NCBI GenBank assembly: GCA_963771075.1
Contig: CAVYSE010000017.1
Span: 96,001 to 160,000 of the forward strand
Direction: 5' to 3'
Length of the DNA: 64,000 nt
Source of the DNA: a candidate division FCPU426 bacterium
GTDB taxonomy: Bacteria > Oederibacteriota > Muellerivitia > Muellerivitales > Muellerivitaceae
The notes beneath the pieces are model-generated. The model was not told the origin of the DNA. It searched no databases and worked only from the letters and a program-made list of their open reading frames with translations. Shown in pieces: positions 45,733-64,000 of this stretch; position 1 is the first letter of the stretch, and every line of letters begins with the position of its first letter. A program made the position numbers and the translations under genes.

Positions 45733-45762
45733 TCGAAGGAGGGAAGGAGAAATCCCCAATTG

Positions 45763-47301
45763 TCAGAGTTTTCGTCTCTGGGACGCCGAAGGAATCCTCA
45801 ATTCCTCCCGATACTTGGCGATGGTGCGGCGTGCAATAGAAAGACCGTCTTGAGTGAGAATTTGCATGATCTTCTGATCCGAGTATGGTTTGCGGGCGGG
45901 TTCCTGGGACACTAATTCCTTTATCCTTTCTTTGACCGTTAACGATGAAATATCCATGCCGTCGGAGGATTCCAAACCGCTGGTGAAGAAATACTTCAAT
46001 TCGAACAAACCCCTGGGGGTCTGGACATACTTGTGGGTGGTTACCCGGGATACGGTGGATTCATGCATGCCAATCATGTCGGCGACCTGTTTCAAGGTCA
46101 GAGGTTTCAATCCAACTAGTCCTGACTCCAGAAAATCCCGTTGAATGCGGAAAATAGCCTCCGTGACACGATAGATTGTCTTGCGCCTCTGCTCAATGTT
46201 TTTAATGAGCCAAAGAGCGGACTGGATCTTCGACTCAAGAAATTTCTTTGTTTCCTTGCCTCCCAAGGTCGATTTATCGCGCAAAAGCTTGCGATAATAA
46301 CCTGAGATTCGCAGCTTGGGCACCGGCTCGTCATTCAAAACCACCACGTAATCGCCCTCGATCTTACGCACACTCACATCCGGGGTGATGTACTTGGTAT
46401 CTTCGGATTGGAAAGCCCGACCCGGTTTGGGGTCCAACGTGGCGATAAAATCCAATATGGGCCTTAGCTCTTCTTCCGCGCACTCCAAACCCTTGGCAAG
46501 GGTTGAATAACGGCGTTTTTCTAAATCATCGAAGAAATCATGAACTACCCGGTAGGCTTTCCGAGCTATCTCCCCAACCTTGCTTTCCAATTGAAGAAGC
46601 AAACATTCCCTTAGATTCCTGGCTCCCACGCCAGTCGGCTCAAAGGATTGGATCGTTTCCAGGGATTTCTCAAGTTTATCCAGGGGAATTCCTTGAGTGA
46701 TAGAGATGTTTTCGAGGGTATCGGTCAAATAACCGTTTTCATCCAGATTGCCAATGAGCAACTTACCTAGGGACAGTTCCTCGTCCCCCTGGGTTACTAG
46801 CAACAGCTGCCATTCCAAACTTTCGGCGAGTGTTTGGATTCGGGTGATGGATGCCTCGACATAATCCCTTTTTTCTTGCTCCGCCCCCGAGTCTTCCGAA
46901 CCCCCATAATTTCCGGGACCACCCTCATAATCGTCGCCCTGCCCCATGAGGGCCCAGGCCTCGATGTCGAAATGATCCCCTTCTTTCAAGTGCTCCACCA
47001 CATCATTCGTGGATCGTTGTTGAAGTCTTTCGAGCAATTCGGCTTCGGCGGTGTTGGTTTCCTGGGAGGCGTCGGCGGGAGGGGCGGGAGAAACGGTCTT
47101 ATCGTCGGCCGTTTCAGCAGGGGCTTCCTCTTGTTCCTCCTCCAGAACCGGATTTTCCATCATTTCCTTCTCGACCCACTCCTTCAGTTCCAGGGTGGAC
47201 AGCTGAAGGATCTTCATGGCCTGCTGCAACATGGGCGTCATGATCATGCGCTGTTGCATGCGCTGATGCATTCCGAAATTTTGGCGCATATTCCATGCCA
47301 C
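45763..47301 (-). CDS. rpoN: RNA polymerase sigma-54 factor
   Basis: MTPMLQQAMKILQL, GNLDENGYL, PTGVGARNLRECL, HESTVSRV, RpoN box ARRTIAKYRE. Confidence 0.97.
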   Translation of the reverse strand: MAWNMRQNFGMHQRMQQRMIMTPMLQQAMKILQLSTLELKEWVEKEMMENPVLEEEQEEAPAETADDKTVSPAPPADASQETNTAEAELLERLQQRSTNDVVEHLKEGDHFDIEAWALMGQGDDYEGGPGNYGGSEDSGAEQEKRDYVEASITRIQTLAESLEWQLLLVTQGDEELSLGKLLIGNLDENGYLTDTLENISITQGIPLDKLEKSLETIQSFEPTGVGARNLRECLLLQLESKVGEIARKAYRVVHDFFDDLEKRRYSTLAKGLECAEEELRPILDFIATLDPKPGRAFQSEDTKYITPDVSVRKIEGDYVVVLNDEPVPKLRISGYYRKLLRDKSTLGGKETKKFLESKIQSALWLIKNIEQRRKTIYRVTEAIFRIQRDFLESGLVGLKPLTLKQVADMIGMHESTVSRVTTHKYVQTPRGLFELKYFFTSGLESSDGMDISSLTVKERIKELVSQEPARKPYSDQKIMQILTQDGLSIARRTIAKYREELRIPSASQRRKL

Positions 47302-47396
47302 CCGGTAGGAGGTAACTGCGCAAGAATTATACCTTTTTTAGCAGAATTAGAGGAATTTCATTAACTTGCTCTTTTATTAACATTTATAAAGTTCTT

Positions 47397-48620
47397 TCAA
47401 TCAGACCAGCCCTTTTGGAACCTTGTCTTTTCCCATTGGCCAATCCAAAAGTCAAGATCAAAGGGTTTTGGATATTCTAAATGTCCTTTCCTAATTCCCC
47501 GTCCGCCCTTGAAGATCGACTTTAAGGTGCGAAAATTTTCCGGATTGACCAAGGGATCAAACTGGTAAAGTGCAAAGTCAGCCCACTTCCCCTTCTCTAA
47601 TGATCCAATGGAATCTTCATTCAATACCTTCGCCGCTTCCGAAGTGGCCATTCTCAAGCATTGGGCAGGCGTCATCCCGGTCTCTTGAAGATCCTTCCAC
47701 TCCTGTGTGGAAACTCCATAAGGCATATGGGGATTACCTGCGTCGGTTCCGTAGGCCACCCTCCCGCCTAGTGAAAGGTATCGTTCTAGGTTCTGCATGC
47801 TGTGGTAATGCCCTTCCCGAAAACCATGCCGGCAAAACTGGCCGAAGGGATGATCCAAACGTCTTTTCCATTCTTGCGCCCATCCTTCGTGCGCGTGCAA
47901 TGTCGGTAGGATTATAATTTTCTTTTTCACCGCTTCTTTCCAAAGGTCGTCTGAAACAGGCCGGGCGGGCATATGGGCCAATTCATCCACCCCATGAGCC
48001 ACACAAAGCTCAAAGTCCATTTCATTGGTGATATGGGCCGTAACACGCATCCCAAGTGCATGAGCGGCCGAAACTATCCCATCCATTTCGGCCTTGGAAA
48101 GACAAGGGCCTAGTTCATGTTCTAAACCGATTTTAATGACGTCCATTCCGAGTCCGGACAGCTTTTGGACCCGGTCCTGAGCTTGATAACGACCTTTAAT
48201 CGTAAAGGCAACACTCGGGCCCCACACGTTCTCGGGATAGCCTCCCGGACAAGTCAGGACCGGTCCCGAAGTGAACAACCGGGGAGATACAACACGTCCG
48301 GATCGTTCCTTCGCCTTCCATTCCAAGGCCGTATTCGCATCGCTGGCCAAATCACGGGCCGTGGTAACTCCATTCCGTAAAAAGCTGGCGAGAACTTTCT
48401 CATTGACCAAGGCATGAACATGTAGATCAATTAACCCAGGCAATAGAAATTGACCCTTTCCCGGAATTTCTTCTAATGCCTCGAACAACGGAGCTTTTGA
48501 CGAAGGCCCGGCGTAGATTATTTTCCCACGGAAAACCAACAGGACCGATTCCAAAATCGGTTGATCATGGACCCCGTCGTAAAGAGTGGCTTTTAAAATG
48601 GCAAGGTCGACTTTCAACAT
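47397..48620 (-). CDS. Metal-dependent amidohydrolase family protein
   Basis: LLPGLIDLHVH, GVTTARDL, VTAH, AYGTDAG, IGSLEKGKWAD. Confidence 0.88.
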   Translation of the reverse strand: MLKVDLAILKATLYDGVHDQPILESVLLVFRGKIIYAGPSSKAPLFEALEEIPGKGQFLLPGLIDLHVHALVNEKVLASFLRNGVTTARDLASDANTALEWKAKERSGRVVSPRLFTSGPVLTCPGGYPENVWGPSVAFTIKGRYQAQDRVQKLSGLGMDVIKIGLEHELGPCLSKAEMDGIVSAAHALGMRVTAHITNEMDFELCVAHGVDELAHMPARPVSDDLWKEAVKKKIIILPTLHAHEGWAQEWKRRLDHPFGQFCRHGFREGHYHSMQNLERYLSLGGRVAYGTDAGNPHMPYGVSTQEWKDLQETGMTPAQCLRMATSEAAKVLNEDSIGSLEKGKWADFALYQFDPLVNPENFRTLKSIFKGGRGIRKGHLEYPKPFDLDFWIGQWEKTRFQKGWSD

Positions 48621-48719
48621 AATTCTCCGTAACCCATCGGACCTTCGACTTATTTATGGAGGCCAATACAGCTTCGCTCAAACGCCGGACAAACTAGTCC
48701 CTTTCGCCAAAACCACTTT

Positions 48720-49627
48720 TTACTGGCCCAAAACGTCATTCAAAAGATAGGCCAGCCTTACTCCCGCCTTTTCCAACTGATGTTCCATGATAAATCTCAT
48801 TTTGCCGTTTTCATAATCCTCGGGCAAATCCCGACCCCAGCGGTTCTTCGGCAGGGGTCCCCTCGGCAACTCGTCATAGATGTTTTTCTGAGCGATTAAA
48901 AAAGACTCGTAAGCCCATTGCTCGGGAGTTCCCCCAACCCAATTGGATTCGTCGTTCGGATCCATCCCGGACTCCAGCCGGGTGGCCATTTCTCGAGGGG
49001 ATTGGGTATTGGTTGTTTCAAACCCATCATCATACGCCGAGCCAGCATGCGGGGGATGGATAATGGGTTGTGTTTCAAAAAGATCATCCCAGTACTTGTG
49101 GAGACATATCCAAATTTTCTTATTCCCTTTTTTAGACGGGATCGTAAACCATTTCTCGTTCCCCCCCGGTCGTTATCATCGGCGCAATGCAGGGGCTGGT
49201 GCAGATCGCCCACAAAATGCACCAAAAACTTCAAGGCCTCCCTTTTAACACCTTTTTTACCGAAAGGTTCCCGTAAGATTTGAACATCTTTATTAATCTG
49301 CTCCACCACGCAGTCCTCATATCGGCAAGCGGTTTCAAGGTCGAATTGCCCCTGGCCCTCCCGAACGTCGAGATTCAAGTAATGCCAGGGAGCCGTCTCC
49401 GGCCTTACATGGACAATGGCGTCGGCCCAAGTGGAAATCGAGGGCATATCTCGGTCTTGGCCTAACAATTCCCGGACAGACCTCCGGGCCTTGGGATTTA
49501 AACGGTCCTGGGCGATCCAGGCTATCGTTTTGTGGCCCACCGCCCCCCAAGCTTTTAGCGAACCGGGATAGGAAAAAATAAAGGTCAAGAAGGCGGCGAT
49601 CAAAATATTACGCTTAGGGAAAGTCAT
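48720..49627 (-). pseudogene. Secreted S1/P1 nuclease, split by a frameshift at a G7 tract (49161-49167)
   Basis: Signal peptide then WGAVGH, WAD, WHY, LKFLVHFVGDLHQPLH. Adding one G gives DRGGN...LHKYWD and joins the 48720-48989 ORF (WAYES...QLEKAGVRLAYLLN). Confidence 0.85.
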
Positions 49628-49773
49628 GGGTTTATCCAAAAAAGTCTGAAGAATATCGGCCTCGGATTATAACCCATCCAATTTAAAAAGTTTCAAAGCA
49701 GCGAAAGAAAGATAATCTTCAACCAAGATTTGGGCCCATCAATGGCCGCCGACAAGATAATCCCCAATTAAAT

Positions 49774-49803
49774 AAAAAAGGCCAGCCTTGTTTGGCTGGC
49801 CTT
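49774..49803 (-). terminator. Intrinsic terminator after the GH5 gene (left copy)
   Basis: AAGGCCAGCC-AAACAA-GGCTGGCCTT followed by a T-run on the minus strand. Confidence 0.85.
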
Positions 49804-49824
49804 CGGTTGCTTGATTTTACTTGT

Positions 49825-52800
49825 TTATCGAAGGACTAACATTTTCCCAACCGAATGGCCGCTGTTGGTGGTCACCACGACGTAATAAAGACCGCTCGCC
49901 AGCGGATTGTTCCAATTATCAACAAGGGAAATTTTCGGGTCATCCCCATACATCTTACTATACGTGTGTTTAAACACTTTTCGGTAAGCTACTGTGTAGA
50001 TTTCCACGGTTACGGAATTGCCCGTGTAGACCGGGGGACGAACAGCTACCTGGGCTGTACCATCCGCCGGGTTGGGGTATATCACAGGAACGCTTAAAGC
50101 AACCGGGGTATTGGTAATGGTGGCGGTAATTGTACCGGTGGTGGTTACCGTAAAGGTTAAGGTGGGGGTAATCGTGGCTGTGACCGTTAAGGATGGAGTC
50201 GGTGTGATCGTTTGAGTATTGGTAGACGTTAAGGTAGAGGTATTCGTTGGGGTTGAAGTGGCTTGCTGGCAATTCACGGTATTGCCCAAAACGGGCAGAC
50301 CCGATATTGACACCGGTTGGCCGCCGTTATTGGAGCTTATCCCCGTTAAACCACTGATTGAGAACTGATAGGTTCCGATGGCCGAATTATTGAAATTCAC
50401 CTGGAATTGCAGACTCACAGGCGAAGAGGTGACCGGGAAGTTATTCAAAGGTAACGTCGCAGTATTGCCCGTAAATCCTGTTATGGATCCCTCGAAAATT
50501 CCATTGGCATAAACGCTAACACTTGTAATGTTGGCTGCGTTCCCTCCAATGTCATCAAGAGTCACGTTCGTCAAGTTCACGGATAAGCTGGTCGTGTTGG
50601 TAAGGGTGGCCGACACCACCGTGACGCCAGAGCTTCCCGAGAGGGTATTTACCGTTGATGTAGTGGAACTCAAGTTCAAAACATTCGATGTAGGTGTAGA
50701 TGTTGCAGTTTGTGTTGATGTCGCCGTCTGAGTGGAGGTTGTGGTCGATGTGTCGGTAGGAGTATTCGTTGAAGTATAGGTATGAGTATAGGTGAAGACT
50801 GGAGTGTCGGTATTCGTTGGGGTTACTGTAATCGTACTAGTGGCTGTAGACGTGTTGGTCGCTGTTGAAGTGGCTGTTGACGTCGGTGTAAACGTAACCG
50901 TTGAGGTAAAGGTAAACGAAGCGGTCGAGGAAGGCGTACCCGTCGCTGTAGATGTATCGGTCGATGTTGGAGATTGGGTATTGGTGGGTGTGTTGGTAAC
51001 TGTTGTGGTATGGGTTTCCGTAAACGTATTGGTCATAGTTGGAGTATTCGTTACGGTGAAGGTATGGGTCTCTGTAAAGGTCGGTGTCAAAGTGGACGTA
51101 AAAGTGGGGGTTCTCGTAATAGTAGAAGTCGCCGTGGATGTGAGTGTATTAGTTACAGTGGGTGACAAGGTCAGTGTCGGGGATAAGGTAATTGTCGGAC
51201 TAAAGGGGAAAGTAGCAGTAGACGTTTCCGTGATGGTATACGTTGAAGTGATCGTGGGAGTCATCGTACGGGTCGCTGTCGAAGTCGATGTTGAGGTCGA
51301 GGTAAAAGAAGAAGTCGGCGTGTTAGTCACCGTCGATGTGTAGGTAGCGGTCGAAGTAGAGGTCGCCGTTGAGGTATGGGTGGGGGTATGGGTCGATGTA
51401 AACGTAACCGTACTGGTTAATGTATTTGTCGGCGTAAATGAGGCGGTGATGGTCGGTGTAAGGGTCACCGTCGGGGACAAAGTGATCGTTGGGCTTAACG
51501 GAAATGTGGCCGTTGGGGTGCCTGTTTGGGTCGGGGTTCCCGTAACGGAATTGGTCGGGGTGTTCGTGGGAGTCAAAGTGCGCGTAGCGGTTGAGGTAGA
51601 AGTCGAGGTGCCCGTGAAAGATGCGGTCGAAGTATGGGTCGACGTAAATGTCGCCGTGGCAGTCGCTGTAAAGGTGGAAGTTCCTGTTGAAGTGCGGGTG
51701 GCAGTCGCAGTGGTCGTAAAGGTGGAGGTCGGGGTCGAAGTTAGCGTTGGGGATAAGGTAATGGTTAAGGTAAATGGAGATGTTGCGGTGGGTGTTCCCG
51801 TGATTGTGGAAGTCATGGTACGGGTAGCTGTCGTTGTACTAGTTGAAGTAGAGGTAATAGTTGACGTGAAAGTGCCGGTTGACGTGGCAGTATAGGTACT
51901 GGTCAAAGTCTTAGTCGTTGTTTGGGTTGGAGTCGCGGTAGGAGATAAAGTATTAGTCGCTGAAAATTGAGTGGTCGCAGTGGGAGTCCCGGATAGGGTT
52001 GAGGTAGAGGTAGCAGTCGAGGTGTAGGTTGAAGTTGATGTGCGGCTTGAAGTCGATGAAGCTGTGGGAGTCACCGTTCCCGTACTCGAGAGTGTCGCGG
52101 TCGGTGTCATCGTCCTTGTATATGTCGGAGTAGGCGTAATTGTATTCGTGGGACTACTTGTAAAAGTCAAAGTATTGCCCACAGTCGCTGTTAAAGTGGC
52201 AGTCACGGATGGGGTTGAGGATTTTGTGGGCGTGTTGGAGGATGTTGAAGTTTGGGAAGGCGATGGAGACGCGGTGTTGGTGCGTGTAGTAGTAACTGTA
52301 TTGGTATTGGTTAAAGCCACCGTAGGTGTGCGAGTGGGAGTAAAGGTTGAGGTTTTTGCTACAGCGGAAGGGGTGGGCGTAATAGGCAGAGTCGAACCCG
52401 ATAAGCAGACGTCGTTGATATACATGCCAAAGGTCGTAGGTCCACCTTGGGTTTCCCATTGAAGGGCCAGCACTTGGGTGATGGCCTGGGATAGCCACAT
52501 CGTGACCCCCGCGCTGTTATGGGGCGGTGAATCGCCATCGCCACCATTCCAGTCCTGAAACTCCATTGCATTAATAGGAAAGCTCTCAAGAATCCAAGTA
52601 TTAGCCTGGTTCACAACAAAATTTTGACCGTATTGGTTCCCGTTACCCCCGCACGCAAAATACTGGCCTTGCCAAGTAATTGGCTCCTGGTTGATCGAGG
52701 GGTTGTTGAGCTGGAACCGGAGAGTTACGGGAGCCACCGTGGTTCGGACATAAAACGCGAAATTCGTCACCCAATTCAGGTTGGTATAACCCACCTGGAG

Positions 52801-54246
52801 ATCGGTTTGCAGGCCGAAACCGCAATAAGTTGCGGGTGAGCTTGTGCCGTTCTCGCTATATCCGCCACTTACGAAAGCCGAATAAGTTTCACTATTTGGG
52901 CCCGCAACGGCGCTGCTTAGGCAAGCCGTGCAATACAAATTAGTAGCGGGACAACTGGCGTAAGACAACATGGGGCTCGATGTTTCGGGTGCGCCGCTTC
53001 CAAGACTTTCCCAATTATAGGCCGACCAAGAACCGTTTAAGTTGTTGGTGGCGTAGGGCGCGCTCGTGTAGGGGCTCTGTGAAAAATTGGAGAGCATGAA
53101 GCAATTTCCTTCGGTGGGAACGGGAGTGGGGGTATAGGTCGCCCCGCCTATGGCGGAATCGCAGGATGGATTCGCCGTACCCGTCAAAGAATTATAGACA
53201 TACTGTCCGTGATAAGACGTGGGACTGTAGCCCGTCCAACTCGAGAGCAAGGGAGGGGAATTGGTCACTGACATGTTCCAAGCTGTCCAGCTTAAATTTC
53301 CTGGATCAAGAACACTTGAAATAAAATTTTGTGTGAACGCAGCGGTCCCGCAAGTAGCGCAGGGCCCAAACTCGCCAACCATCACGGGATAAGTGGTTGT
53401 AGATACGTTGACCGTTTGATTCGCATTATTAGAATAAATATGGCAGTCGTACAAAACCCCATTTCCACTCGTGGTCGAAAGTTCGTAGTTGGGCAAAATG
53501 CTTGCCAAATCGTTGCACCAGTTGAGACCCCCGGCAATACAAATATTGTTGGCACCTGTATTACGCACTGCGGTTAGCAAAGCGTTCATACCAGGAGTAT
53601 TGAACGAACCCGCCGACCCGCCGCTGTACCAGGCACTAGCGCCTAGGGTGTAGGGCTCGTTGTATAAATCAAAGAAAACCGCTGGATTGTTCATAGACCT
53701 GGCCGCCACGGAACTCCAAAAGGTGACAGCATTATAGTCCGCCATCTCCTGCTGGCCTGTGGCTGTTCCCCAACCCGCTCCCGTTGGGGGAGTAGTCGCT
53801 GAACTGGAGGTGCCTGAAAAGTGAAGATCGAGAATAATGTAACAATTTTGTGAGGAGCAAAGACTGACCAATTGATCCACCATGGCTGGATAACTATCGG
53901 GATAAAAAAACCACCGATCCTGGTTCAAGGGCAAACGAATAAAATTACTTTTCCAAGTATCGATAGCCTCGGTTGCAGTTGCGAGAATCCCAGATGGGTT
54001 AGCGTCATTGACTCCAAACTCGAGACCGTCGATGTCCACACCCCTCAAACGGACCGTGCACCCGCTACTCGCGTTGACGATTGCGCTACCATTAATTTTC
54101 AGTTGGGGGGGGGCTGCTTGGGCCGGTTGTGATAAAAGCAAAAGGCCAAAGCTTACAAGTAGAGCTATTAAATGGCGTTTAAATCGATTTAACGAAAACC
54201 GGATGAAGGGATTCATTAGGGAATAAAGCGCAGAAGAAAATCTCAA
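49825..54246 (-). CDS. Secreted GH5-family glycoside hydrolase with CBM/CIA30-like domain, long Thr/Ser-rich stalk and T9SS/FlgD-like C-terminal domain (copy 1)
   Basis: Likely TTG start after GGAGG; signal peptide ending AQA; LRGV, NFIRLPL, ILDLH, FDLYNEP (acid/base), PVMVGEFG (nucleophile); tail YPNP...IYT...LASGLYYVVV...KMLVLR. Confidence 0.85.
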   Translation of the reverse strand: MRFSSALYSLMNPFIRFSLNRFKRHLIALLVSFGLLLLSQPAQAAPPQLKINGSAIVNASSGCTVRLRGVDIDGLEFGVNDANPSGILATATEAIDTWKSNFIRLPLNQDRWFFYPDSYPAMVDQLVSLCSSQNCYIILDLHFSGTSSSATTPPTGAGWGTATGQQEMADYNAVTFWSSVAARSMNNPAVFFDLYNEPYTLGASAWYSGGSAGSFNTPGMNALLTAVRNTGANNICIAGGLNWCNDLASILPNYELSTTSGNGVLYDCHIYSNNANQTVNVSTTTYPVMVGEFGPCATCGTAAFTQNFISSVLDPGNLSWTAWNMSVTNSPPLLSSWTGYSPTSYHGQYVYNSLTGTANPSCDSAIGGATYTPTPVPTEGNCFMLSNFSQSPYTSAPYATNNLNGSWSAYNWESLGSGAPETSSPMLSYASCPATNLYCTACLSSAVAGPNSETYSAFVSGGYSENGTSSPATYCGFGLQTDLQVGYTNLNWVTNFAFYVRTTVAPVTLRFQLNNPSINQEPITWQGQYFACGGNGNQYGQNFVVNQANTWILESFPINAMEFQDWNGGDGDSPPHNSAGVTMWLSQAITQVLALQWETQGGPTTFGMYINDVCLSGSTLPITPTPSAVAKTSTFTPTRTPTVALTNTNTVTTTRTNTASPSPSQTSTSSNTPTKSSTPSVTATLTATVGNTLTFTSSPTNTITPTPTYTRTMTPTATLSSTGTVTPTASSTSSRTSTSTYTSTATSTSTLSGTPTATTQFSATNTLSPTATPTQTTTKTLTSTYTATSTGTFTSTITSTSTSTTTATRTMTSTITGTPTATSPFTLTITLSPTLTSTPTSTFTTTATATRTSTGTSTFTATATATFTSTHTSTASFTGTSTSTSTATRTLTPTNTPTNSVTGTPTQTGTPTATFPLSPTITLSPTVTLTPTITASFTPTNTLTSTVTFTSTHTPTHTSTATSTSTATYTSTVTNTPTSSFTSTSTSTSTATRTMTPTITSTYTITETSTATFPFSPTITLSPTLTLSPTVTNTLTSTATSTITRTPTFTSTLTPTFTETHTFTVTNTPTMTNTFTETHTTTVTNTPTNTQSPTSTDTSTATGTPSSTASFTFTSTVTFTPTSTATSTATNTSTATSTITVTPTNTDTPVFTYTHTYTSTNTPTDTSTTTSTQTATSTQTATSTPTSNVLNLSSTTSTVNTLSGSSGVTVVSATLTNTTSLSVNLTNVTLDDIGGNAANITSVSVYANGIFEGSITGFTGNTATLPLNNFPVTSSPVSLQFQVNFNNSAIGTYQFSISGLTGISSNNGGQPVSISGLPVLGNTVNCQQATSTPTNTSTLTSTNTQTITPTPSLTVTATITPTLTFTVTTTGTITATITNTPVALSVPVIYPNPADGTAQVAVRPPVYTGNSVTVEIYTVAYRKVFKHTYSKMYGDDPKISLVDNWNNPLASGLYYVVVTTNSGHSVGKMLVLR
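50687..52385 (-). repeat. Low-complexity Thr/Ser/Pro-rich coding region (degenerate xT repeats)
   Basis: About 560 codons of TxTxTPT-like sequence with recurring SPTITLSPT units. Confidence 0.9.
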
Positions 54247-54643
54247 AATATCCTCCAAAACTTTACAGGTCTGAAATCCGGGGCAACGGCGAGACAAAGT
54301 AATTCTATCTCAGTTATTTGATTTGGTGGGACAGGACAACATTTTTTATTGAACGATTTTAACGAGCAACCCGGCCTTTTTGAAAAATATTTAAGATGCT
54401 AATTTTATACTCATGAAATAATTGGACAGCTTCTTTAATTAAACGATTCCAAGTGTGTGTTTTTTTAAAAAGAACAACCTCTTTACCCCCCCACAAATCG
54501 TTTTTGGTCCCTTAAAAAGTAGGTTTTTCAACCTTTTTAATAAAACAAATTGAACGTATGAAGGAAAATGCTAGCTGAATCATCTTAAAAGAATTCTATA
54601 ATGCTTTCCGTTGTGGTTGTAGAGTCCTAGAACGGAGACCTGA

Positions 54644-55273
54644 ATGAAGTTCAAAACCTTTTTAAGATATATCCCAATTTTTTTAGTCTCACTGATTTCT
54701 TTGTTCGTCGCCTGCACTCGCATCAACACAACCCCCGTTCCCAATCCGACATTCCCCCCTCAAACGATCTGGAGTAATGGCACCGTCGGTACTTGGTTTG
54801 GAAATGTTTTAAACGGAAACAGTGGTGGATGTTGCCCCTCAACTAGTTCTATTTCTTCGGCATCGGATAATATTTCCGGTGATACAAACACCCTTCTTCT
54901 GTCCACAACCTATACTCATGGCTTTTATTTTTATTCTGCTTCAACCCCTTCGAATCCCTCTTCCTATTATTCCAAGGGCCATTTGCAATTTGATATTCGG
55001 TTGGAACAACCGCCCTCTCTTTTCACCTTGTTGTATGTGGAGTATCTTCTTCAGGCAAACAACGATAATGGGGCGGTCACTTTTAGCCCAAACTTCATAA
55101 ATTCTTTGAGTACAACTTCATTCACACATGTTTCTTTGCCCTTTACGACCTTCACCCCAGATTACGAAGCACAAAGCATTGATACGCCTTTTGAGATTTC
55201 CTGGCAAACCACTTCAGCCCCTTCAAACGGCAATATCGTAACCCTCGACGACATCGTCTGGACAGCCAATTAA
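54644..55273 (+). CDS. Hypothetical lipoprotein, possible carbohydrate-binding beta-sandwich (copy 1)
   Basis: GGAG RBS; signal peptide with FVAC lipobox; HLQFDIR...FTHVSLPF...VTLDDIVW pattern; TATAAT at 54597-54602. Confidence 0.7.
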   Translation: MKFKTFLRYIPIFLVSLISLFVACTRINTTPVPNPTFPPQTIWSNGTVGTWFGNVLNGNSGGCCPSTSSISSASDNISGDTNTLLLSTTYTHGFYFYSASTPSNPSSYYSKGHLQFDIRLEQPPSLFTLLYVEYLLQANNDNGAVTFSPNFINSLSTTSFTHVSLPFTTFTPDYEAQSIDTPFEISWQTTSAPSNGNIVTLDDIVWTAN

Positions 55274-55309
55274 AATTCAGGATCTCCAACCCTAAAGGTA
55301 ACTTTTTAT

Positions 55310-56409
55310 TTATCCCACTTTCGCCGGGTGTCCTTTTTTCTCATATTGTAAAATAAAGTTTTCCACCAGTTCATGGGCCTCTGAATCGGAATACTGAACT
55401 GGCGGTGTTTTGAAAAAATAGGCGGAAGGCCCCTCTATTGGCCCTGAAAGTTTATGGTCCAAGGCCAATTTGCAACAGCGAATAGCATCGATGCCCACCC
55501 CGGCGCTGTTGGGTGAATCCCAAACTTCCAATTTCAGTTCAATCGTCACGGGTACATCACCAAATTCCCTGCCTTCCAAGCGTATATGGGCCCATTTGCG
55601 GTCCTGCAGCCAGGGAACATAATCGGAAGGGCCAATATATATATTTTCGGGTTCGATCGGATGGGACAACTGGCTGACGACCGCTCCGGTCTTAGATATC
55701 TTTTTTGATTCCAACCTCTCCCGTTCCAACATGTTCTTAAAATCCATGTTTCCGCCGAAATTCAGCTGACTGGTACGGTCAAGGATCACTCCCCGGTCGG
55801 AAAACATTTTGGCCAGGACACGATGGGTGATGGTGGCTCCTACCTGGGCCTTAATGTCGTCCCCGAGAACGGGGACCCCGGCGTCGGCGAATTTTTTCGC
55901 CCAAGCGCTGTTGGAAGCGATGAAAACCGGCATGCAATTGACCACGCCCACCCCGGCCTTCAGCGCCTCGTTCATATAAAAATGGGTGGCTTTCTCGCTG
56001 CCCACGGGCAGGTAATTGACCAGCACGTCCGTGCGGGTTTCTTTCAGTATTTTCGCCACGTCCACGGGCTTTTCTTTGGATTCGATCACTATTTCCCGGT
56101 AATACTTTCCCAATCCATCCAAGGTATGGCCACGCTCCACCTTCACCCCAGCGCGGGCACATCGCTAAATTTGATCGTGTTGTTAATGGGCGCAAAAATA
56201 GCCTCGGAAAGGTCCTTCCCCACTTTGTTGGAATCCACATCAAAGGCGCAGGAAAATTCAATGTCGCCCACATGATATGAGCCTAAACGCACATGCATCA
56301 GACCCGGAACGAAACTCTCTTCCTCGGCGTCCCGGTAAAAACGCACACCTTGAACCAAGGAAGAGGCACAGCAACCCACTCCCACCAAGGCCACCCGAAT
56401 CTTAGGCAT
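55310..56409 (-). pseudogene. ino1: Myo-inositol-1-phosphate synthase, copy 1, with native start but 1-nt frameshift at 56146-56149
   Basis: AGGAG RBS + [30 protein letters not shown] causes a premature stop where copy 2 reads CTTGGGGTG. The remainder has [37 protein letters not shown]. Confidence 0.85.
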
Positions 56410-56464
56410 AGTCGTCAAGCTCCTGAAAAAATGAATCCTTTTATCGGCCCCGAGGGGCCTTTTG

Positions 56465-57580
56465 ATGAACCCAAAAGACACGCTGTATAACCGTGTGGCT
56501 GTGGTAGGAGTGGGTTGCTGTGCCTCTTCCTTGGTTCAAGGTGTGCGTTTTTACCGGAATGCCGATGAAGAGAGTTTCGTTCCGGGTCTGATGCATGTGC
56601 GCTTAGGCTCATATCATGTGGGCGACATCGAATTTTCCTGCGCTTTTGATGTGGATTCCAACAAGGTGGGGAAGGACCTTTCCGAGGCTATCTTTGAGCC
56701 CATTAACAACACGTTCAAATTCAGCGATGTGCCCGCGCTTGGGGTGAAGGTGGAGCGTGGCCATACCTTGGATGGATTGGGAAAGTATTACCGGGAAATA
56801 GTGGTCGAATCCAAAGAAAAGCCCGTGGACGTAGCCAAAATATTGAAAGAAACCCGCACGGACGTGCTGGTCAATTACCTGCCCGTGGGCAGCGAGAAAG
56901 CCACCCATTTTTATATGAACGAGGCGCTGAAGGCCGGGGTAGGCGTGGTCAATTGCATGCCGGTTTTCATCGCTTCCAACAGCGCTTGGGCCAAAAAATT
57001 CGCCGACGCCGGGGTCCCCGTTCTCGGGGATGACATTAAGGCCCAGGTAGGCGCGACCATTACCCATCGTGTCCTGGCCAAAATGTTCTCCGACCGGGGA
57101 GTGATCCTCGACCGTACCAGTCAGCTGAATTTCGGCGGAAACATGGATTTTAAGAACATGTTGGAACGGGAGAGGTTGGAATCAAAAAAGATATCTAAAA
57201 CCGGAGCGGTCGTCAGCCAGTTGTCCCACCCGATAGAACCCGAAAATATATATATTGGTCCTTCCGATTATGTTCCCTGGCTGCAGGACCGTAAGTGGGC
57301 CCATATACGCTTGGAAGGCAGGGAATTTGGTGATGTACCCGTGACGATTGAACTGAAACTGGAAGTTTGGGATTCACCCAACAGCGCCGGGGTGGGCATC
57401 GATGCTATTCGCTGTTGCAAATTGGCTTTGGACCATAAACTTTCAGGGCCAATAGAGGGGCCTTCCGCCTATTTTTTCAAAACACCGCCAGTTCAGTATT
57501 CCGATTCAGAGGCCCATGAACTGGTGGAAAACTTTATTTTACAATATGAGAAAAAAGGACACCCGGCGAAAGTGGGATAA
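56465..57580 (+). CDS. ino1: Myo-inositol-1-phosphate synthase, copy 2: uninterrupted frame but non-native N-terminus
   Basis: All MIPS motifs are in one frame; homology to copy 1 starts at 56492 (RVAVVGVG); the preceding residues derive from the spacer. Confidence 0.8.
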
Positions 57581-57616
57581 ATAAAAAGTTACCTTTAGGG
57601 TTGGAGATCCTGAATT

Positions 57617-58246
57617 TTAATTGGCTGTCCAGACGATGTCGTCGAGGGTTACGACATTGCCGTTTGAAGGGGCTGAAGTGGTTTGCCAGGAAATCTCAAA
57701 AGGCGTATCAATGCTTTGCGCTTCGTAATCAGGGGTGAAGGTCGAAAAGGGCAAGGAAACGTGTGTGAATGAAGTTGTACTCAAAGAATTTATGAAGTTT
57801 GGGTTAAACGTAACCGCACCATTATCGCTGTTTGCCTGAAGAAGATACTCCACATACAACAAGGTGAAAAGAGAGGGCGGTTGTTCCAACCGAATATCGA
57901 ATTGCAAATGGCCCTTGGCATAATAGGAAGAGGGATTCGAAGGGGTTGAAGCGGAATAAAAATAAAAGCCATGAGTATAGGTCGTGGAAAGAAGAAGGGT
58001 ATTTGTATCGCCGGAAATATTATCCGTTGCCGATGAAATAGAACTGGTTGAGGGGCAACATCCACCACTGTTTCCGGTTAAAACATTTCCAAACCAAAAA
58101 CCGATGGTGCCATTACTCCAGATTGTTTGAGGGGGCCAAGTCGGGTTTGGAACGGGGGTTGTGTTGATGCGGGTACAGCCGACGAATAAAGAAATCAGTG
58201 AGACTAAAAAAATTGGGATATAGCTTAAAAAGGTTTTGAACTTCAT
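57617..58246 (-). CDS. Hypothetical lipoprotein (copy 2)
   Basis: Same length (209 aa) as 54644-55273 with about a dozen substitutions; lipobox FVGC. Confidence 0.7.
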   Translation of the reverse strand: MKFKTFLSYIPIFLVSLISLFVGCTRINTTPVPNPTWPPQTIWSNGTIGFWFGNVLTGNSGGCCPSTSSISSATDNISGDTNTLLLSTTYTHGFYFYSASTPSNPSSYYAKGHLQFDIRLEQPPSLFTLLYVEYLLQANSDNGAVTFNPNFINSLSTTSFTHVSLPFSTFTPDYEAQSIDTPFEISWQTTSAPSNGNVVTLDDIVWTAN

Positions 58247-58653
58247 TCAGGTCTCCGTTCGAGGACTCTACAACCACAACGGAAAGCATTATAGAATTCT
58301 TTTAAGATGATTCAGCTAGCATTTTCCTTCAAACGCTCAATTTGTTTATTAAAAAGGTTGAAAAAACCGACTTTAATAAGGGACCTAAAATGATTTGTGG
58401 GGGAAAAGAGGTTGTTATTTAAAAAAACACACACAAGAAATCGTTTAATTAAAGAAGCTGAACAACTATTTCATGAATATAAAATTGGCTTATAAAATTA
58501 GCATCTTAAATATTTTTCAAAAAGGCCGGGTTGCTCGTTAAAATCGATTGATAAAAAATGTTGTCCTGTCCCACCAAATCAAATAACTGAGATAGAATTA
58601 CTTTGTCTCGCCGTTGCCATGGATTTCAGACCTGTAAAGTTTTGGAGGATATT

Positions 58654-61600
58654 TTGAGATTTTCATCTGAGCTTTGTTCCCTAATAAATCCATTCATTAG
58701 GCTTTCGTTAAATCGATTTAATAGCCGTTTAATCGCTCTTCTTGTGAGCTTCGGTCTATTGGTTTTATCCCAACCAACCCAAGCAGCCCCCCCCCAACTG
58801 AAAATTAATGGTAGCGCAATCGTCAACGCGAGTAGCGGGTGCACAGTCCGTTTGAGGGGTGTGGACATCGATGGTCTCGAGTTTGGAGTCAATGACGCTA
58901 ACCCATCTGGGATTCTCGCAACCGCAACCGAGGCCATCGATACTTGGAAAAGTAATTTTATACGTTTGCCCTTGAACCAGGATCGATGGTTTTTTTATCC
59001 CGATAGTTATCCAGCCATGGTGGATCAATTGGTCAGTCTTTGCTCCTCACAAAATTGTTACATTATTCTCGATCTTCACTTTTCAGGCACCTCCAGTTCG
59101 GCGACTATTCCCCCAACGGGAGCGGGTTGGGGAACCGCAACAGGTCAGCAGGAGATGGCGGACTATAATGCTGTCACCTTTTGGAGTTCCGTGGCGGCCA
59201 GGTATGAGAACAATCCAGCGGTTTTCTTTGACCTTTACAACGAGCCCTACACCCTAGGAGCTAGTGCCTGGTACAGCGGCGGGTCGGCGGGTTCGTTCAA
59301 TACTCCTGGTATGAACGCTTTACTAACCGCAGTGCGTAATACAGGTGCCAACAATATTTGTATTGCCGGGGGTCTCAATTGGTGCAACGATTTAGCAAGC
59401 ATTTTGCCCAACTACGAACTTTCGACCACGAGTGGAAATGGGGTTTTGTACGACTGCCATATTTATTCTAATAATGCGAATCAAACGGTTAACGTATCTA
59501 CAACCACTTATCCCGTGATGGTTGGCGAGTTCGGGCCCTGCGCTACTTGCGGGACCGCTGCGTTCACACAAAATTTTATTTCAAGTGTTCTTGATCCAGG
59601 AAATTTAAGCTGGACAGCTTGGAACATGTCAGTGACCAATTCCCCTCCCTTGCTCTCGAGTTGGACGGGCTACAGTCCCACGTCTTATCACGGACAGTAT
59701 GTCTATAATTCTTTGACGGGTACGGCGAATCCATCCTGCGATTCCGCCATAGGCGGGGCGACCTATACCCCCACTCCCGTTCCCACCGAAGGAAATTGCT
59801 TCATGCTCTCCAATTTTTCACAGAGCCCCTACACGAGCGCGCCCTACGCCACCAACAACTTAAACGGTTCTTGGTCGGCCTATAATTGGGAAAGTCTTGG
59901 AAGCGGCGCACCCGAAACATCGAGCCCCATGTTGTCTTACGCCAGTTGTCCCGCTACTAATTTGTATTGCACGGCTTGCCTAAGCAGCGCCGTTGCGGGC
60001 CCAAATAGTGAAACTTATTCGGCTTTCGTAAGTGGCGGATATAGCGAGAACGGCACAAGCTCACCCGCAACTTATTGCGGTTTCGGCCTGCAAACCGATC
60101 TCCAGGTGGGTTATACCAACCTGAATTGGGTGACGAATTTCGCGTTTTATGTCCGAACCACGGTGGCTCCCGTAACTCTCCGGTTCCAGCTCAACAACCC
60201 CTCGATCAACCAGGAGCCAATTACTTGGCAAGGCCAGTATTTTGCGTGCGGGGGTAACGGGAACCAATACGGTCAAAATTTTGTTGTGAACCAGGCTAAT
60301 ACTTGGATTCTTGAGAGCTTTCCTATTAATGCAATGGAGTTTCAGGACTGGAATGGTGGCGATGGCGATTCACCGCCCCATAACAGCGCGGGGGTCACGA
60401 TGTGGCTATCCCAGGCCATCACCCAAGTGCTGGCCCTTCAATGGGAAACCCAAGGTGGACCTACGACCTTTGGCATGTATATCAACGACGTCTGCTTATC
60501 GGGTTCGACTCTGCCTATTACGCCCACCCCTTCCGCTGTAGCAAAAACCTCAACCTTTACTCCCACTCGCACACCTACGGTGGCTTTAACCAATACCAAT
60601 ACAGTTACTACTACACGCACCAACACCGCGTCTCCATCGCCTTCCCAAACTTCAACATCCTCCAACACGCCCACAAAATCCTCAACCCCATCCGTGACTG
60701 CCACTTTAACAGCGACTGTGGGCAATACTTTGACTTTTACAAGTAGTCCCACGAATACAATTACGCCTACTCCGACATATACAAGGACGATGACACCGAC
60801 CGCGACACTCTCGAGTACGGGAACGGTGACTCCCACAGCTTCATCGACTTCAAGCCGCACATCAACTTCAACCTACACCTCGACTGCTACCTCTACCTCA
60901 ACCCTATCCGGGACTCCCACTGCGACCACTCAATTTTCAGCGACTAATACTTTATCTCCTACCGCGACTCCAACCCAAACAACGACTAAGACTTTGACCA
61001 GTACCTATACTGCCACGTCAACCGGCACTTTCACGTCAACTATTACCTCTACTTCAACTAGTACAACGACAGCTACCCGTACCATGACTTCCACAATCAC
61101 GGGAACACCCACCGCAACATCTCCATTTACCTTAACCATTACCTTATCCCCAACGCTAACTTCGACCCCGACCTCCACCTTTACGACCACTGCGACTGCC
61201 ACCCGCACTTCAACAGGAACTTCCACCTTTACAGCGACTGCCACGGCGACATTTACGTCGACCCATACTTCGACCGCATCTTTCACGGGCACCTCGACTT
61301 CTACCTCAACCGCTACGCGCACTTTGACTCCCACGAACACCCCGACCAATTCCGTTACGGGAACCCCGACCCAAACAGGCACCCCAACGGCCACATTTCC
61401 GTTAAGCCCAACGATCACTTTGTCCCCGACGGTGACCCTTACACCGACCATCACCGCCTCATTTACGCCGACAAATACATTAACCAGTACGGTTACGTTT
61501 ACATCGACCCATACCCCCACCCATACCTCAACGGCGACCTCTACTTCGACCGCTACCTACACATCGACGGTGACTAACACGCCGACTTCTTCTTTTACCT

Positions 61601-63075
61601 CGACCTCAACATCGACTTCGACAGCGACCCGTACGATGACTCCCACGATCACTTCAACGTATACCATCACGGAAACGTCTACTGCTACTTTCCCCTTTAG
61701 TCCGACAATTACCTTATCCCCGACACTGACCTTGTCACCCACTGTAACTAATACACTCACATCCACGGCGACTTCTACTATTACGAGAACCCCCACTTTT
61801 ACGTCCACTTTGACACCGACCTTTACAGAGACCCATACCTTCACCGTAACGAATACTCCAACTATGACCAATACGTTTACGGAAACCCATACCACAACAG
61901 TTACCAACACACCCACCAATACCCAATCTCCAACATCGACCGATACATCTACAGCGACGGGTACGCCTTCCTCGACCGCTTCGTTTACCTTTACCTCAAC
62001 GGTTACGTTTACACCGACGTCAACAGCCACTTCAACAGCGACCAACACGTCTACAGCCACTAGTACGATTACAGTAACCCCAACGAATACCGACACTCCA
62101 GTCTTCACCTATACTCATACCTATACTTCAACGAATACTCCTACCGACACATCGACCACAACCTCCACTCAGACGGCGACATCAACACAAACTGCAACAT
62201 CTACACCTACATCAGATGTTTTGAACTTGAGTTCCACTACATCAACGGTAAATACCCTCTCGGGAAGCTCTGGCGTCACGGTGGTGTCGGCCACCCTTAC
62301 CAACACGACCAGCTTATCCGTGAACTTGACGAACGTGACTCTTGATGACATTGGAGGGAACGCAGCCAACATTACAAGTGTTAGCGTTTATGCCAATGGA
62401 ATTTTCGAGGGATCCATAACAGGATTTACGGGCAATACTGCGACGTTACCTTTGAATAACTTCCCGGTCACCTCTTCGCCTGTGAGTCTGCAATTCCAGG
62501 TGAATTTCAATAATTCGGCCATCGGAACCTATCAGTTCTCAATCAGTGGTTTAACGGGGATAAGCTCCAATAACGGCGGCCAACCGGTGTCAATATCGGG
62601 TCTGCCCGTTTTGGGCAATACCGTGAATTGCCAGCAAGCCACTTCAACCCCAACGAATACCTCTACCTTAACGTCTACCAATACTCAAACGATCACACCG
62701 ACTCCATCCTTAACGGTCACAGCCACGATTACCCCCACCTTAACCTTTACGGTAACCACCACCGGTACAATTACCGCCACCATTACCAATACCCCGGTTG
62801 CTTTAAGCGTTCCTGTGATATACCCCAACCCGGCGGATGGTACAGCCCAGGTAGCTGTTCGTCCCCCGGTCTACACGGGCAATTCCGTAACCGTGGAAAT
62901 CTACACAGTAGCTTACCGAAAAGTGTTTAAACACACGTATAGTAAGATGTATGGGGATGACCCGAAAATTTCCCTTGTTGATAATTGGAACAATCCGCTG
63001 GCGAGCGGTCTTTATTACGTCGTGGTGACCACCAACAGCGGCCATTCGGTTGGGAAAATGTTAGTCCTTCGATAA
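58654..63075 (+). CDS. Secreted GH5 / CBM-like / Thr-rich / T9SS-tail-like protein (copy 2)
   Basis: Inverted copy of 49825-54246; GGAGG at 58644-58648 before TTG. Confidence 0.85.
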   Translation: MRFSSELCSLINPFIRLSLNRFNSRLIALLVSFGLLVLSQPTQAAPPQLKINGSAIVNASSGCTVRLRGVDIDGLEFGVNDANPSGILATATEAIDTWKSNFIRLPLNQDRWFFYPDSYPAMVDQLVSLCSSQNCYIILDLHFSGTSSSATIPPTGAGWGTATGQQEMADYNAVTFWSSVAARYENNPAVFFDLYNEPYTLGASAWYSGGSAGSFNTPGMNALLTAVRNTGANNICIAGGLNWCNDLASILPNYELSTTSGNGVLYDCHIYSNNANQTVNVSTTTYPVMVGEFGPCATCGTAAFTQNFISSVLDPGNLSWTAWNMSVTNSPPLLSSWTGYSPTSYHGQYVYNSLTGTANPSCDSAIGGATYTPTPVPTEGNCFMLSNFSQSPYTSAPYATNNLNGSWSAYNWESLGSGAPETSSPMLSYASCPATNLYCTACLSSAVAGPNSETYSAFVSGGYSENGTSSPATYCGFGLQTDLQVGYTNLNWVTNFAFYVRTTVAPVTLRFQLNNPSINQEPITWQGQYFACGGNGNQYGQNFVVNQANTWILESFPINAMEFQDWNGGDGDSPPHNSAGVTMWLSQAITQVLALQWETQGGPTTFGMYINDVCLSGSTLPITPTPSAVAKTSTFTPTRTPTVALTNTNTVTTTRTNTASPSPSQTSTSSNTPTKSSTPSVTATLTATVGNTLTFTSSPTNTITPTPTYTRTMTPTATLSSTGTVTPTASSTSSRTSTSTYTSTATSTSTLSGTPTATTQFSATNTLSPTATPTQTTTKTLTSTYTATSTGTFTSTITSTSTSTTTATRTMTSTITGTPTATSPFTLTITLSPTLTSTPTSTFTTTATATRTSTGTSTFTATATATFTSTHTSTASFTGTSTSTSTATRTLTPTNTPTNSVTGTPTQTGTPTATFPLSPTITLSPTVTLTPTITASFTPTNTLTSTVTFTSTHTPTHTSTATSTSTATYTSTVTNTPTSSFTSTSTSTSTATRTMTPTITSTYTITETSTATFPFSPTITLSPTLTLSPTVTNTLTSTATSTITRTPTFTSTLTPTFTETHTFTVTNTPTMTNTFTETHTTTVTNTPTNTQSPTSTDTSTATGTPSSTASFTFTSTVTFTPTSTATSTATNTSTATSTITVTPTNTDTPVFTYTHTYTSTNTPTDTSTTTSTQTATSTQTATSTPTSDVLNLSSTTSTVNTLSGSSGVTVVSATLTNTTSLSVNLTNVTLDDIGGNAANITSVSVYANGIFEGSITGFTGNTATLPLNNFPVTSSPVSLQFQVNFNNSAIGTYQFSISGLTGISSNNGGQPVSISGLPVLGNTVNCQQATSTPTNTSTLTSTNTQTITPTPSLTVTATITPTLTFTVTTTGTITATITNTPVALSVPVIYPNPADGTAQVAVRPPVYTGNSVTVEIYTVAYRKVFKHTYSKMYGDDPKISLVDNWNNPLASGLYYVVVTTNSGHSVGKMLVLR

Positions 63076-63096
63076 ACAAGTAAAATCAAGCAACCG

Positions 63097-63126
63097 AAGG
63101 CCAGCCAAACAAGGCTGGCCTTTTTT
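63097..63126 (+). terminator. Intrinsic terminator after the GH5 gene (right copy)
   Basis: AAGGCCAGCC-AAACAA-GGCTGGCCTTTTTT. Confidence 0.85.
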
Positions 63127-63272
63127 ATTTAATTGGGGATTATCTTGTCGGCGGCCATTGATGGGCCCAAATCTTGGTTGAAGATTATCTTTCTTTCGCT
63201 GCTTTGAAACTTTTTAAATTGGATGGGTTATAATCCGAGGCCGATATTCTTCAGACTTTTTTGGATAAACCC

Positions 63273-64000
63273 ATGACTTTCCCTAAGCGTAATATTTTGA
63301 TCGCCGCCTTCTTGACCTTTATTTTTTCCTATCCCGGTTCGCTAAAAGCTTGGGGGGCGGTGGGCCACAAAACGATAGCCTGGATCGCCCAGGACCGTTT
63401 AAATCCCAAGGCCCGGAGGTCTGTCCGGGAATTGTTAGGCCAAGACCGAGATATGCCCTCGATTTCCACTTGGGCCGACGCCATTGTCCATGTAAGGCCG
63501 GAGACGGCTCCCTGGCATTACTTGAATCTCGACGTTCGGGAGGGCCAGGGGCAATTCGACCTTGAAACCGCTTGCCGATATGAGGACTGCGTGGTGGAGC
63601 AGATTAATAAAGATGTTCAAATCTTACGGGAACCTTTCGGTAAAAAAGGTGTTAAAAGGGAGGCCTTGAAGTTTTTGGTGCATTTTGTGGGCGATCTGCA
63701 CCAGCCCCTGCATTGCGCCGATGATAACGACCGGGGGGGAACGAGAAATGGTTTACGATCCCGTCTAAAAAAGGGAATAAGAAAATTTGGATATGTCTCC
63801 ACAAGTACTGGGATGATCTTTTTGAAACACAACCCATTATCCATCCCCCGCATGCTGGCTCGGCGTATGATGATGGGTTTGAAACAACCAATACCCAATC
63901 CCCTCGAGAAATGGCCACCCGGCTGGAGTCCGGGATGGATCCGAACGACGAATCCAATTGGGTTGGGGGAACTCCCGAGCAATGGGCTTACGAGTCTTTT
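63273..64000 (+). pseudogene. S1/P1 nuclease copy 2, same G7 frameshift (63733-63739), truncated by window end
   Basis: Reverse complement of 48900-49627. Confidence 0.8.

Follow-up and report, generated by a model that had tools for sequence, protein, structure and literature searches.

We asked whether the large palindrome at the end of contig C17 (CAVYSE010000017.1), whose arms differ in a manner that looks shaped by selection, is an old duplication carried by a bacterium or a product of assembly. The window, i.e., the whole stretch of DNA analysed, comprises 64,000 nt of this contig. The evidence below indicates that the palindrome is very probably an assembly artefact, a fold-back of the C17 end whose arms likely owe their assembly or polishing to reads from different lineages in the sample, and that the selection signal belongs to the history of these lineages, not to the palindrome.

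Layout of the palindrome and identity between its arms

The inverted repeat, with arms of about 15.5 kb, reaches the last base of C17, beyond the window. Its parts are as follows.

40902 to 56394: left arm, with PTS IIB, IIA, yvcK, hprK, ptsN, hpf, rpoN, an amidohydrolase, an S1/P1 nuclease, GH5, a lipoprotein-like ORF and ino1
41965 to 46694: left partner of a distal divergent tract, from the 3' part of rpoN to yvcK; the right partner lies beyond the window
46695 to 53364: near-identical tract (99.91%), with a frameshift common to both arms
53365 to 56394: central divergent tract, left side (partner 56495 to 59532; 95.5% identity; natural dimorphic alleles)
56395 to 56494, minus strand: loop of 100 nt, the normal upstream sequence of ino1
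56494 to 56495: fold-back junction, inside the pgsA reading frame, joining ino1 codon 5-6 on the opposite strand
56495 to 64000: right (returning) arm, extending past the window to the C17 end (window-equivalent 72020)

The PTS, yvcK, hprK, ptsN, hpf and rpoN names are presumptive and were assigned from the translations. The left arm is collinear with two congeneric genomes.

The initial annotation held that the divergence is confined to the centre, with the last change near 59532/53368 and essentially identical arms beyond about 3.1 kb. Within the central 3,030 nt, 135 substitutions and 21 gap columns separate the two arms (95.5% identity), and the last change falls at exactly 59532/53368. 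The next 6,670 nt are indeed nearly identical, with only 6 substitutions (99.91%), and a C7-run frameshift in the S1/P1 nuclease gene (about 49160) is present in both arms; true strain identity and a shared consensus probably both contribute to this tract. Farther out, however, confinement to the centre does not hold. The 4.7-kb distal tract (41965 to 46694) is only 85% identical to its right-arm partner (708 substitutions and 60 gap columns in 4,730 nt), and it had been missed because this partner sits outside the window. In the outermost 1,063 nt no substitution was found, and identity is back to 100%.

Allelic differences in the central tract

The genes and the insertion that bear on the central differences are listed below.

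55310 to 56409, minus strand: ino1 (myo-inositol-1-phosphate synthase) with left-arm alleles; 1-nt frameshift near 56149
56495 to 57580, plus strand: headless ino1 (PF01658) with right-arm alleles, as at the end of contig C15
54644 to 55273, plus strand: left copy of a 209-aa lipoprotein-like ORF, labelled from its N-terminus by eye
57617 to 58246, minus strand: right copy of this ORF
58477 to 58490, plus strand: 13-nt insertion between genes of the right arm, placed by BLAST within a short repeated word
49825 to 54297, minus strand: left copy of GH5 with Thr-rich stalk (PF00150)
58603 to 63075, plus strand: right copy of GH5 with Thr-rich stalk, which differs over codons 1-310 and is near-identical after

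For ino1, the estimate of about 25-30 synonymous against about 6 amino-acid changes agrees with the codon count, which gave 28 synonymous and 6 nonsynonymous differences. Because only 22.8% of ino1 sites are synonymous, this excess lies beyond random error (binomial p = 3e-13). The two copies of the lipoprotein-like ORF, which has no Pfam match, differ by 22 synonymous and 14 nonsynonymous changes. About 9 changes in the GH5 signal peptide against about 3 in the catalytic domain had been reported; the long ORF has 10 in codons 1-70 and 3 in codons 71-380. The 13-nt insertion, first located near 58487-58499, has about the same placement by BLAST, and it is present ungapped in public contigs X1 record 5 and X4 record 25.

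The public data were Logan short-read contigs (depth about 3-7) of runs X1-X4 and X12; X5-X11 and X13, with small shares, were left out. Run X12, from the same sample as X1, yielded only 7 aligned contigs, nearly all partial. The right-arm alleles, whose absence from short reads would have indicated a base-calling artefact, were found with 0 differences in contigs of four runs: X1 record 1 (12 diagnostic sites), X2 record 9 (17), X3 records 15 (14) and 20 (19), and X4 record 25 (11). Where the public contigs carried another letter, it was exactly the left-arm allele in 39/40 of the rows listed. Taken together, X1-X4 show the right-arm set throughout the central tract, and for the lipoprotein gene and the 5' region of GH5 they also show the left-arm set. 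X1 and X2 combine right-arm alleles in ino1 with left-arm alleles in the lipoprotein gene and the 5' part of GH5, X4 is largely of the right-arm type, and within the single contig X1 record 5 the allele set changes. No left-arm ino1 alleles occur among the public contigs listed; here it is the synonymous bias that suggests that they are real. Near 56149, the site of the left-arm frameshift, the X1 and X2 contigs hold one base more.

The arm differences are thus mostly natural variants, which public samples hold in ordinary gene order without the mirror image. The proposal that differences with a synonymous bias are real evolved alleles is upheld by the codon counts, dN/dS and the public contigs. 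The region from ino1 through the lipoprotein gene to the 5' part of GH5 is dimorphic and apparently recombines across samples, as in ordinary population variation.

The palindrome centre lies within pgsA

The loop opens with the end of pgsA, 17 codons and the stop (56494-56441); a short spacer follows, in which AGGAG resembles a ribosome site, and then ino1 begins (ATG at 56409). Beyond the loop, the sequence returns to its own locus on the other strand after a turn of 100 nt, inside the limit of 200 bp that is one mark of fold-back artefacts. Junction microhomology, judged by eye, is imperfect and at most about 3 nt. The palindrome centre cuts pgsA mid-gene, leaving the right-arm ino1 headless, without its first four codons and its ribosome site, and the left-arm ino1 frameshifted; the initial annotation had overlooked both defects. 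A small hairpin at 56447-56460 was considered as the folding point and rejected, because the turn is 35 nt off at 56494/56495 and the hairpin belongs to the pgsA tail, which is also found on C15.

The unfolded order is found elsewhere. In the last 350 nt of C15, another contig of this genome, the complete pgsA and, in normal orientation, the loop sequence lead into an ino1 of the right-arm allele set; 252/253 nt of this ino1 equal the right arm, with the lone mismatch at the junction, versus 94.9% identity to the left arm. C15, with the gene order lptB-pgsA-ino1 and the single pgsA copy of the genome, is the true neighbour of C17. X3 contig 15 (345 nt) matches 228 nt of right-arm ino1 with 0 differences and then enters the loop in unfolded order, and its final 17 letters past the loop agree by eye with C15 pgsA. 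Among 30 relatives searched, 29 had an ino1 match and none had two full-length matches; in 19/19 loci fetched from these 29, pgsA lies directly upstream of one ino1 on the same strand. Genomes G006 and G005 are collinear with the C15 end, ino1 and the left arm. The unfolded breakpoint is accordingly seen in the C15 end, X3 contig 15 and all 19 relative loci. An allele set that runs into a normal flank, as expected of a strain chimera, was found for the right-arm alleles only (C15 and X3 contig 15). The folded form across 56494/56495 was absent from the public contig pieces listed, but this is weak evidence, since Logan contigs at a depth of about 3-7 drop rare variants.

The distal tract and its putative donor lineage

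The distal right-arm genes show dN/dS of 0.015-0.07 against their left copies, and GC3 is 0.82-0.84 on the right versus 0.60-0.66 on the left. The right-arm copies of rpoN, hpf and yvcK are frameshifted. With G006 the distal right tract shares 86% identity, slightly more than the 84% it shares with the left arm. In the hprK tree, the left copy groups with G005 (94/92), and a clade of the left and right copies was rejected (p-AU 0.031; one gene, moderately significant). No donor above 86% was found among 31 family genomes searched. To judge from these comparisons, the distal right-arm tract probably derives from another congeneric lineage.

Fold-backs at other contig ends

Of the 28 contigs, five (C17, C18, C22, C24 and C26) terminate in a fold-back, and a further fold-back lies close to the end of C10. 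In C18, C22 and C24 the fold-back is rich in indels along its whole length, and the true continuation of C22 is the end of another contig (C23 5-951). The assembly also shows homopolymer-type errors, and from the homopolymer and indel patterns we infer the sequencing platform. On C17, 447/827 mismatch spacings are divisible by 3; C24 shows this codon periodicity partly (242/555), and it is not elevated in the fold-backs of C10, C18, C22 and C26. Lineage mixing is therefore shown for C17 only.

A probable assembly artefact and its alternatives

Collectively, the palindrome appears ordinary, because its centre cuts a gene that is whole on C15 and the arm differences are mostly real strain variants that public samples carry without mirroring. 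The arms were likely assembled or polished from different lineages, and the differences between them are therefore ordinary between-strain variation. As for the exact route, the returning arm would have been seeded by a read or molecule that folded back some 100 nt beyond the start of ino1. The locus would then have stood in the assembly twice, and reads of each haplotype would have been sorted to the best-matching copy. In the 95.5% tract, where the strains differ, each arm would thereby have acquired an allele set of its own, whereas agreement between strains or a common consensus would have kept the arms alike elsewhere. At greater distance from the centre, the returning arm may have been supplied by reads of a congeneric species (85%) present at low coverage, which would account for codon bias that looks intact yet comes with several frameshifts. 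Of the options raised in the initial annotation, the head-to-head joining of strain haplotypes is the one that stands, as the right-arm alleles run into a normal pgsA flank on C15 and in a public short-read contig.

There is a slim chance that some cells of this soil bacterium carry a real inverted duplication whose spare arm is a landing pad for sister-strain and congeneric (85%) alleles; such an arm would maintain the ino1-GH5 region and the rpoN-hprK region each in two versions on a single chromosome. It is very unlikely that part of the population carries a real tandem-inversion duplication of recent origin, one arm of which was later overwritten by homologous recombination from a sister strain and a congeneric species. 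The asymmetric loop of about 100 nt fits, and the public contigs suggest that the tract recombines (the mixed X1 and X2, the mostly right-arm X4, the switch in X1 record 5). However, two imports into one arm would be required, one of them at 85% identity, and ino1 would be split from its likely operon promoter. The five contig-end fold-backs, three with read-like indel noise, and the ending of C15 on the same sequence would be left unexplained. The right arm ends at the contig end, and any second junction returning to unique chromosomal DNA would lie beyond it.

Less probable again is an artefactual join by another route, either an inverted chimera from whole-genome amplification or an assembler path error without a fold-back read; this is a variant of the artefact reading that leaves the biology unchanged, and its probability is only the share beyond the best explanation. 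The library method is without record, and an inverted junction with a short skipped loop is typical of amplification chimeras. A single such chimera would give identical arms, however, so lineage sorting of reads would be needed anyway, and the indel-rich returning arms on other contigs resemble single noisy long reads.

A real old inverted duplication, with distal arms homogenised by gene conversion and central mismatches limiting cruciform extrusion, is highly improbable and largely refuted. The strong synonymous bias at the centre and the 6.7-kb tract at 99.9% identity speak for it, but the farthest tract is the most diverged (85%), and the centre decapitates pgsA, with one ino1 headless and the other frameshifted. 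Moreover, the right-arm alleles stand in normal order on C15 and in X3, 19/19 relative loci have a single ino1 behind pgsA, the copies are not closest relatives (hprK, p-AU 0.031; distal tract, 86% to G006 versus 84% to the left arm), and the arm stops exactly at the contig end, as do four other fold-backs. Least probable of all is prior-driven base-calling of a low-quality fold-back read, which the noisy, indel-rich ends of C18, C22 and C24 and the homopolymer-type errors might suggest, but which is ruled out in the central tract by the synonymous bias and by right-arm alleles that recur unchanged in independent contigs from four runs and on C15.

The palindrome thus most likely exists in no cell; it is biologically without importance but a useful caution. 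When two copies in a metagenome-assembled contig show low dN/dS, both sequences are real, but they need not lie on the same chromosome. A fold-back at a contig end can contain DNA from other strains or species and so be mistaken for an old duplication under selection, and in reference genomes it raises the apparent copy number of genes. For C17, a cut at 56494 and a join to C15 are probably warranted.

Comparison with known systems

In bacterial tandem inversion duplications and gene-converting palindromes, head-to-head arms surround a short asymmetric loop, and C17 shares this architecture. Whereas in real recent examples the arms do not differ and a second junction leads back to the chromosome, the arms of C17 match different natural haplotypes and its returning arm stops at the contig end. 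A non-exhaustive search found no paper on a terminal fold-back with arms from different lineages.

The C17 palindrome belongs to a known class of long-read assembly error. Foldback artefact reads are described as making up about 0.55-0.6% of ONT gDNA reads and as able to tangle assembly graphs (Heinz, Meyerson, Li 2026, PMC12870357). As in those reads, two segments of C17 share one mapping position on opposite strands, and its 100-nt loop keeps the turn under the 200 bp given there; the foldbacks described there are near-perfect palindromic reads from human and mouse, whereas C17 is an assembled metagenomic contig whose arms carry alleles of different lineages. Long-read metagenome assemblers are also described as concatenating subpopulation-specific variants of one locus in a contig, reporting minor-subpopulation sequence, and creating duplications without read support (bioRxiv 10.1101/2025.04.22.649783). 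C17 resembles these false duplications in that subpopulation variants of one locus are concatenated; the false repeats of that report, whose main text does not contain the word 'inverted', are direct and from PacBio HiFi, whereas the repeat of C17 is inverted, terminal and mixed from at least three lineages.

Geometry and divergence of the inverted repeat

Self-comparison of the window revealed one large inverted repeat (48900-56394 versus 56495-64000, 97.9% identity). The window corresponds to C17:96001-160000. At the contig scale, in an assembly of 28 contigs and 4.39 Mb, the repeat measures 15.5 kb per arm and reaches the final base of contig C17. Ordered by distance from the centre, it falls into four zones.

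Divergence between the arms of the C17 repeat
Zone 1 (innermost): 3,030 nt; 135 substitutions and 21 gap columns; 95.5%
Zone 2: 6,670 nt; 6 substitutions; 99.91%
Zone 3: 4,730 nt; 708 substitutions and 60 gap columns; 85.0%
Zone 4 (outermost): 1,063 nt; 0 substitutions

The initial annotation had described the divergence as confined to the centre and shaped by selection. Its counts for zones 1 and 2 hold, and the 13-nt intergenic insertion and the outermost central change at 59532/53368 were confirmed; centre-only divergence fails because the most diverged zone, zone 3, is distal. In ino1, 28 synonymous and 6 nonsynonymous codon differences were counted (p = 3e-13 against random error), in agreement with the reported synonymous bias. 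The lipoprotein-like ORF (209 aa, no Pfam match) had a higher dN/dS than ino1 (0.18 versus 0.014). The contrast claimed within GH5 was likewise recovered: codons 1-70 of the long ORF account for 10 amino-acid changes, against 3 for codons 71-380. Codon 28 of this ORF is ATG on the left arm (54217-54297) and ATA on the right arm (58603-58686), so the true GH5 start codon is uncertain, and part of the 'signal peptide' divergence may precede the actual start.

The Thr-rich and C-terminal part of GH5 (510 nt) is 90% identical to C28 91594-92106, and shorter matches occur on C8, C11 and C14; judged by sequence, these would form a family of similar secreted proteins. A 257-nt direct repeat (75% identity) was also observed at window 6836-7092 and 9780-10035.

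Copies of the 510-nt GH5 part
C17 157026-157532 (window 61026-61532)
C17 147362-147874 (window 51362-51874)

The centre of the repeat

Contig C15 ends with a gene that we take to be lptB (PF00005), a whole pgsA-type CDP-alcohol phosphatidyltransferase gene (PF01066), which is the one pgsA copy in the genome, and the first 88 codons of ino1. Its final 350 nt overlap C17 at the fold point. The 100-nt loop is no designed spacer: read on the minus strand, it consists of the last 18 codons of this C15 pgsA, then a short spacer, then the start of ino1. The junction 56494/56495 thus cuts pgsA and joins it to ino1 codon 5-6 on the opposite strand. On the right arm, ino1 lacks both a start codon and a ribosome site of its own. 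On the left arm the gene is frameshifted by 1 nt near 56149, a place at which contigs from the public sequencing runs X1 and X2 contain an extra base. The ino1 piece of C15 agrees with the right arm in 252 of 253 nt, compared with 94.9% identity to the left arm.

Nineteen relative loci were fetched, and every one has pgsA immediately upstream of a single ino1 on the same strand. The congeneric genomes G005 and G006 contain sequence collinear with the end of C15, with ino1 and with the left arm. The likely true order is C15 and then, in reverse, the part of C17 that extends up to the loop. A junction of C15 with C17 (from window 56494 leftwards) is probable and would give lptB-pgsA-ino1-lipoprotein-GH5, as in both relatives. 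Among 30 other family genomes searched, ino1 is present in 29 and two full-length ino1 matches were found in none.

Alleles of both arms in public runs

Part of the stretch was found in 11 of the 13 listed public runs. Five were compared, all as contigs at a depth of about 3-7: X1, X2, X3 and X12 with the left arm, and X1-X4 with the first 3.3 kb of the right arm. Contig 15 of X3 carries 228 nt of right-arm ino1 with 0 differences and continues into the loop in unfolded order, and its terminal 17 letters match C15 pgsA in a comparison by eye. The right-arm alleles thus run into a normal non-palindromic flank, an outcome that the initial annotation had set against its own reading. Right-arm alleles occurred with 0 differences in run pieces carrying 12, 17, 14, 19 and 11 diagnostic sites. 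Against the right arm, left-arm letters were found in 39 of the 40 rows listed of 83, and several pieces differ from it exactly as often as the arms differ (14/14, 12/12, 11/11, 7/7 and 10/10; agreement by count, with letters partly compared). The variants that distinguish the two arms are real sequence. Within ino1, every listed piece is of the right-arm type, which leaves the left-arm ino1 alleles backed by their synonymous bias and by nothing outside this assembly; this counts against our reading.

In X1 and X2, ino1 has right-arm alleles and the lipoprotein and GH5 have left-arm alleles; the alleles of X4 are mostly of the right-arm set, and X3 contains both sets. These mixtures, which come from separate short contigs with phase visible only in X1 record 5, where the sets switch inside a single contig, suggest a recombining population. 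The ino1-lipoprotein-GH5 5' tract (56495-59532) occurs in two forms in the independent soil and bog samples (X1-X4), with apparent mosaics of both sets. X2 has further divergent tracts on a 99% backbone (e.g. 44 differences in L002 8750-9760), and an identical backbone interrupted by a 4-5% tract is therefore nothing unusual in these strains.

The distal 85% tract

Right-arm rpoN (3' part), hpf, ptsN, hprK and yvcK show dN/dS of 0.015-0.072 against their left copies, and GC3 of ptsN and hprK is 0.82-0.84 on the right arm versus 0.60-0.66 on the left. The right-arm tract shows 86% identity with G006 and 84% with the left arm, and has far more letters in common with G006 than the left arm has. 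In a 14-row hprK tree the left copy clusters with G005 (94/92); a clade of left and right hprK was rejected (p-AU 0.031). Frameshifts split rpoN, hpf and yvcK on the right arm; all three are intact in G006 and on the left arm. The right-arm tract resembles a thin consensus drawn from a third, congeneric lineage; a real import into one strain is a possible alternative.

Other fold-backs and probable consensus errors

Five of the 28 contigs end in fold-backs (C17, C18, C22, C24 and C26); on C10 a fold-back lies close to the end.

Fold-backs on other contigs
C18 280122-284542, at or near contig end
C22 27821-33652, at or near contig end
C24 172310-179859, at or near contig end
C26 137354-144686, at or near contig end
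C10 42046-51119, near contig end

The arms on C18, C22 and C24 differ by dense indels, as from a noisy read. The start of C23 overlaps C22 up to the fold point and then continues, paralleling C15 for C17, and looks like the true continuation of C22. The tail of C10 duplicates C28 10022-14901, and C26 has a mismatch-rich, gap-poor patch resembling that of C17, without clear codon periodicity. Genes at the fold-back ends of C18, C22, C24, C26 and C10 are unreliable for copy number.

The S1/P1 nuclease ORF (48896-49639; 63261-64004) matches Pfam positions 1-138 of 258 only. Its gene is frameshifted at a C7 run near 49160 in both C17 arms, and the X1 and X2 contigs each contain an extra base at this position, which makes a consensus error the probable cause of the frame break; its presence in both arms fits a shared or systematic error.

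Origin of the palindrome

The palindrome is very likely an assembly artefact, namely a fold-back that terminates C17, with arms from different lineages. The interruption of pgsA, its normal flank, the natural occurrence of the alleles and the recurrence of fold-backs are observations; the mechanism is proposed. A fold-back molecule would have served as the seed of the returning arm; reads from different haplotypes would then have been sorted between the two copies of the locus, and a low-coverage relative would have supplied the distal tract. A real duplication, old or recent, is very improbable, an artefact arisen by another route is hardly to be expected, and base-calling noise can practically be dismissed.

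Foldback reads make up about 0.55-0.6% of ONT gDNA reads and turn within 200 bp, according to PMC12870357, and concatenated subpopulation variants and false duplications by long-read metagenome assemblers are described in 10.1101/2025.04.22.649783. In the literature searched, as far as the texts were accessible, no paper was found on the exact combination of a fold-back with arms from different lineages; the C17 case is a mix of two known error classes.
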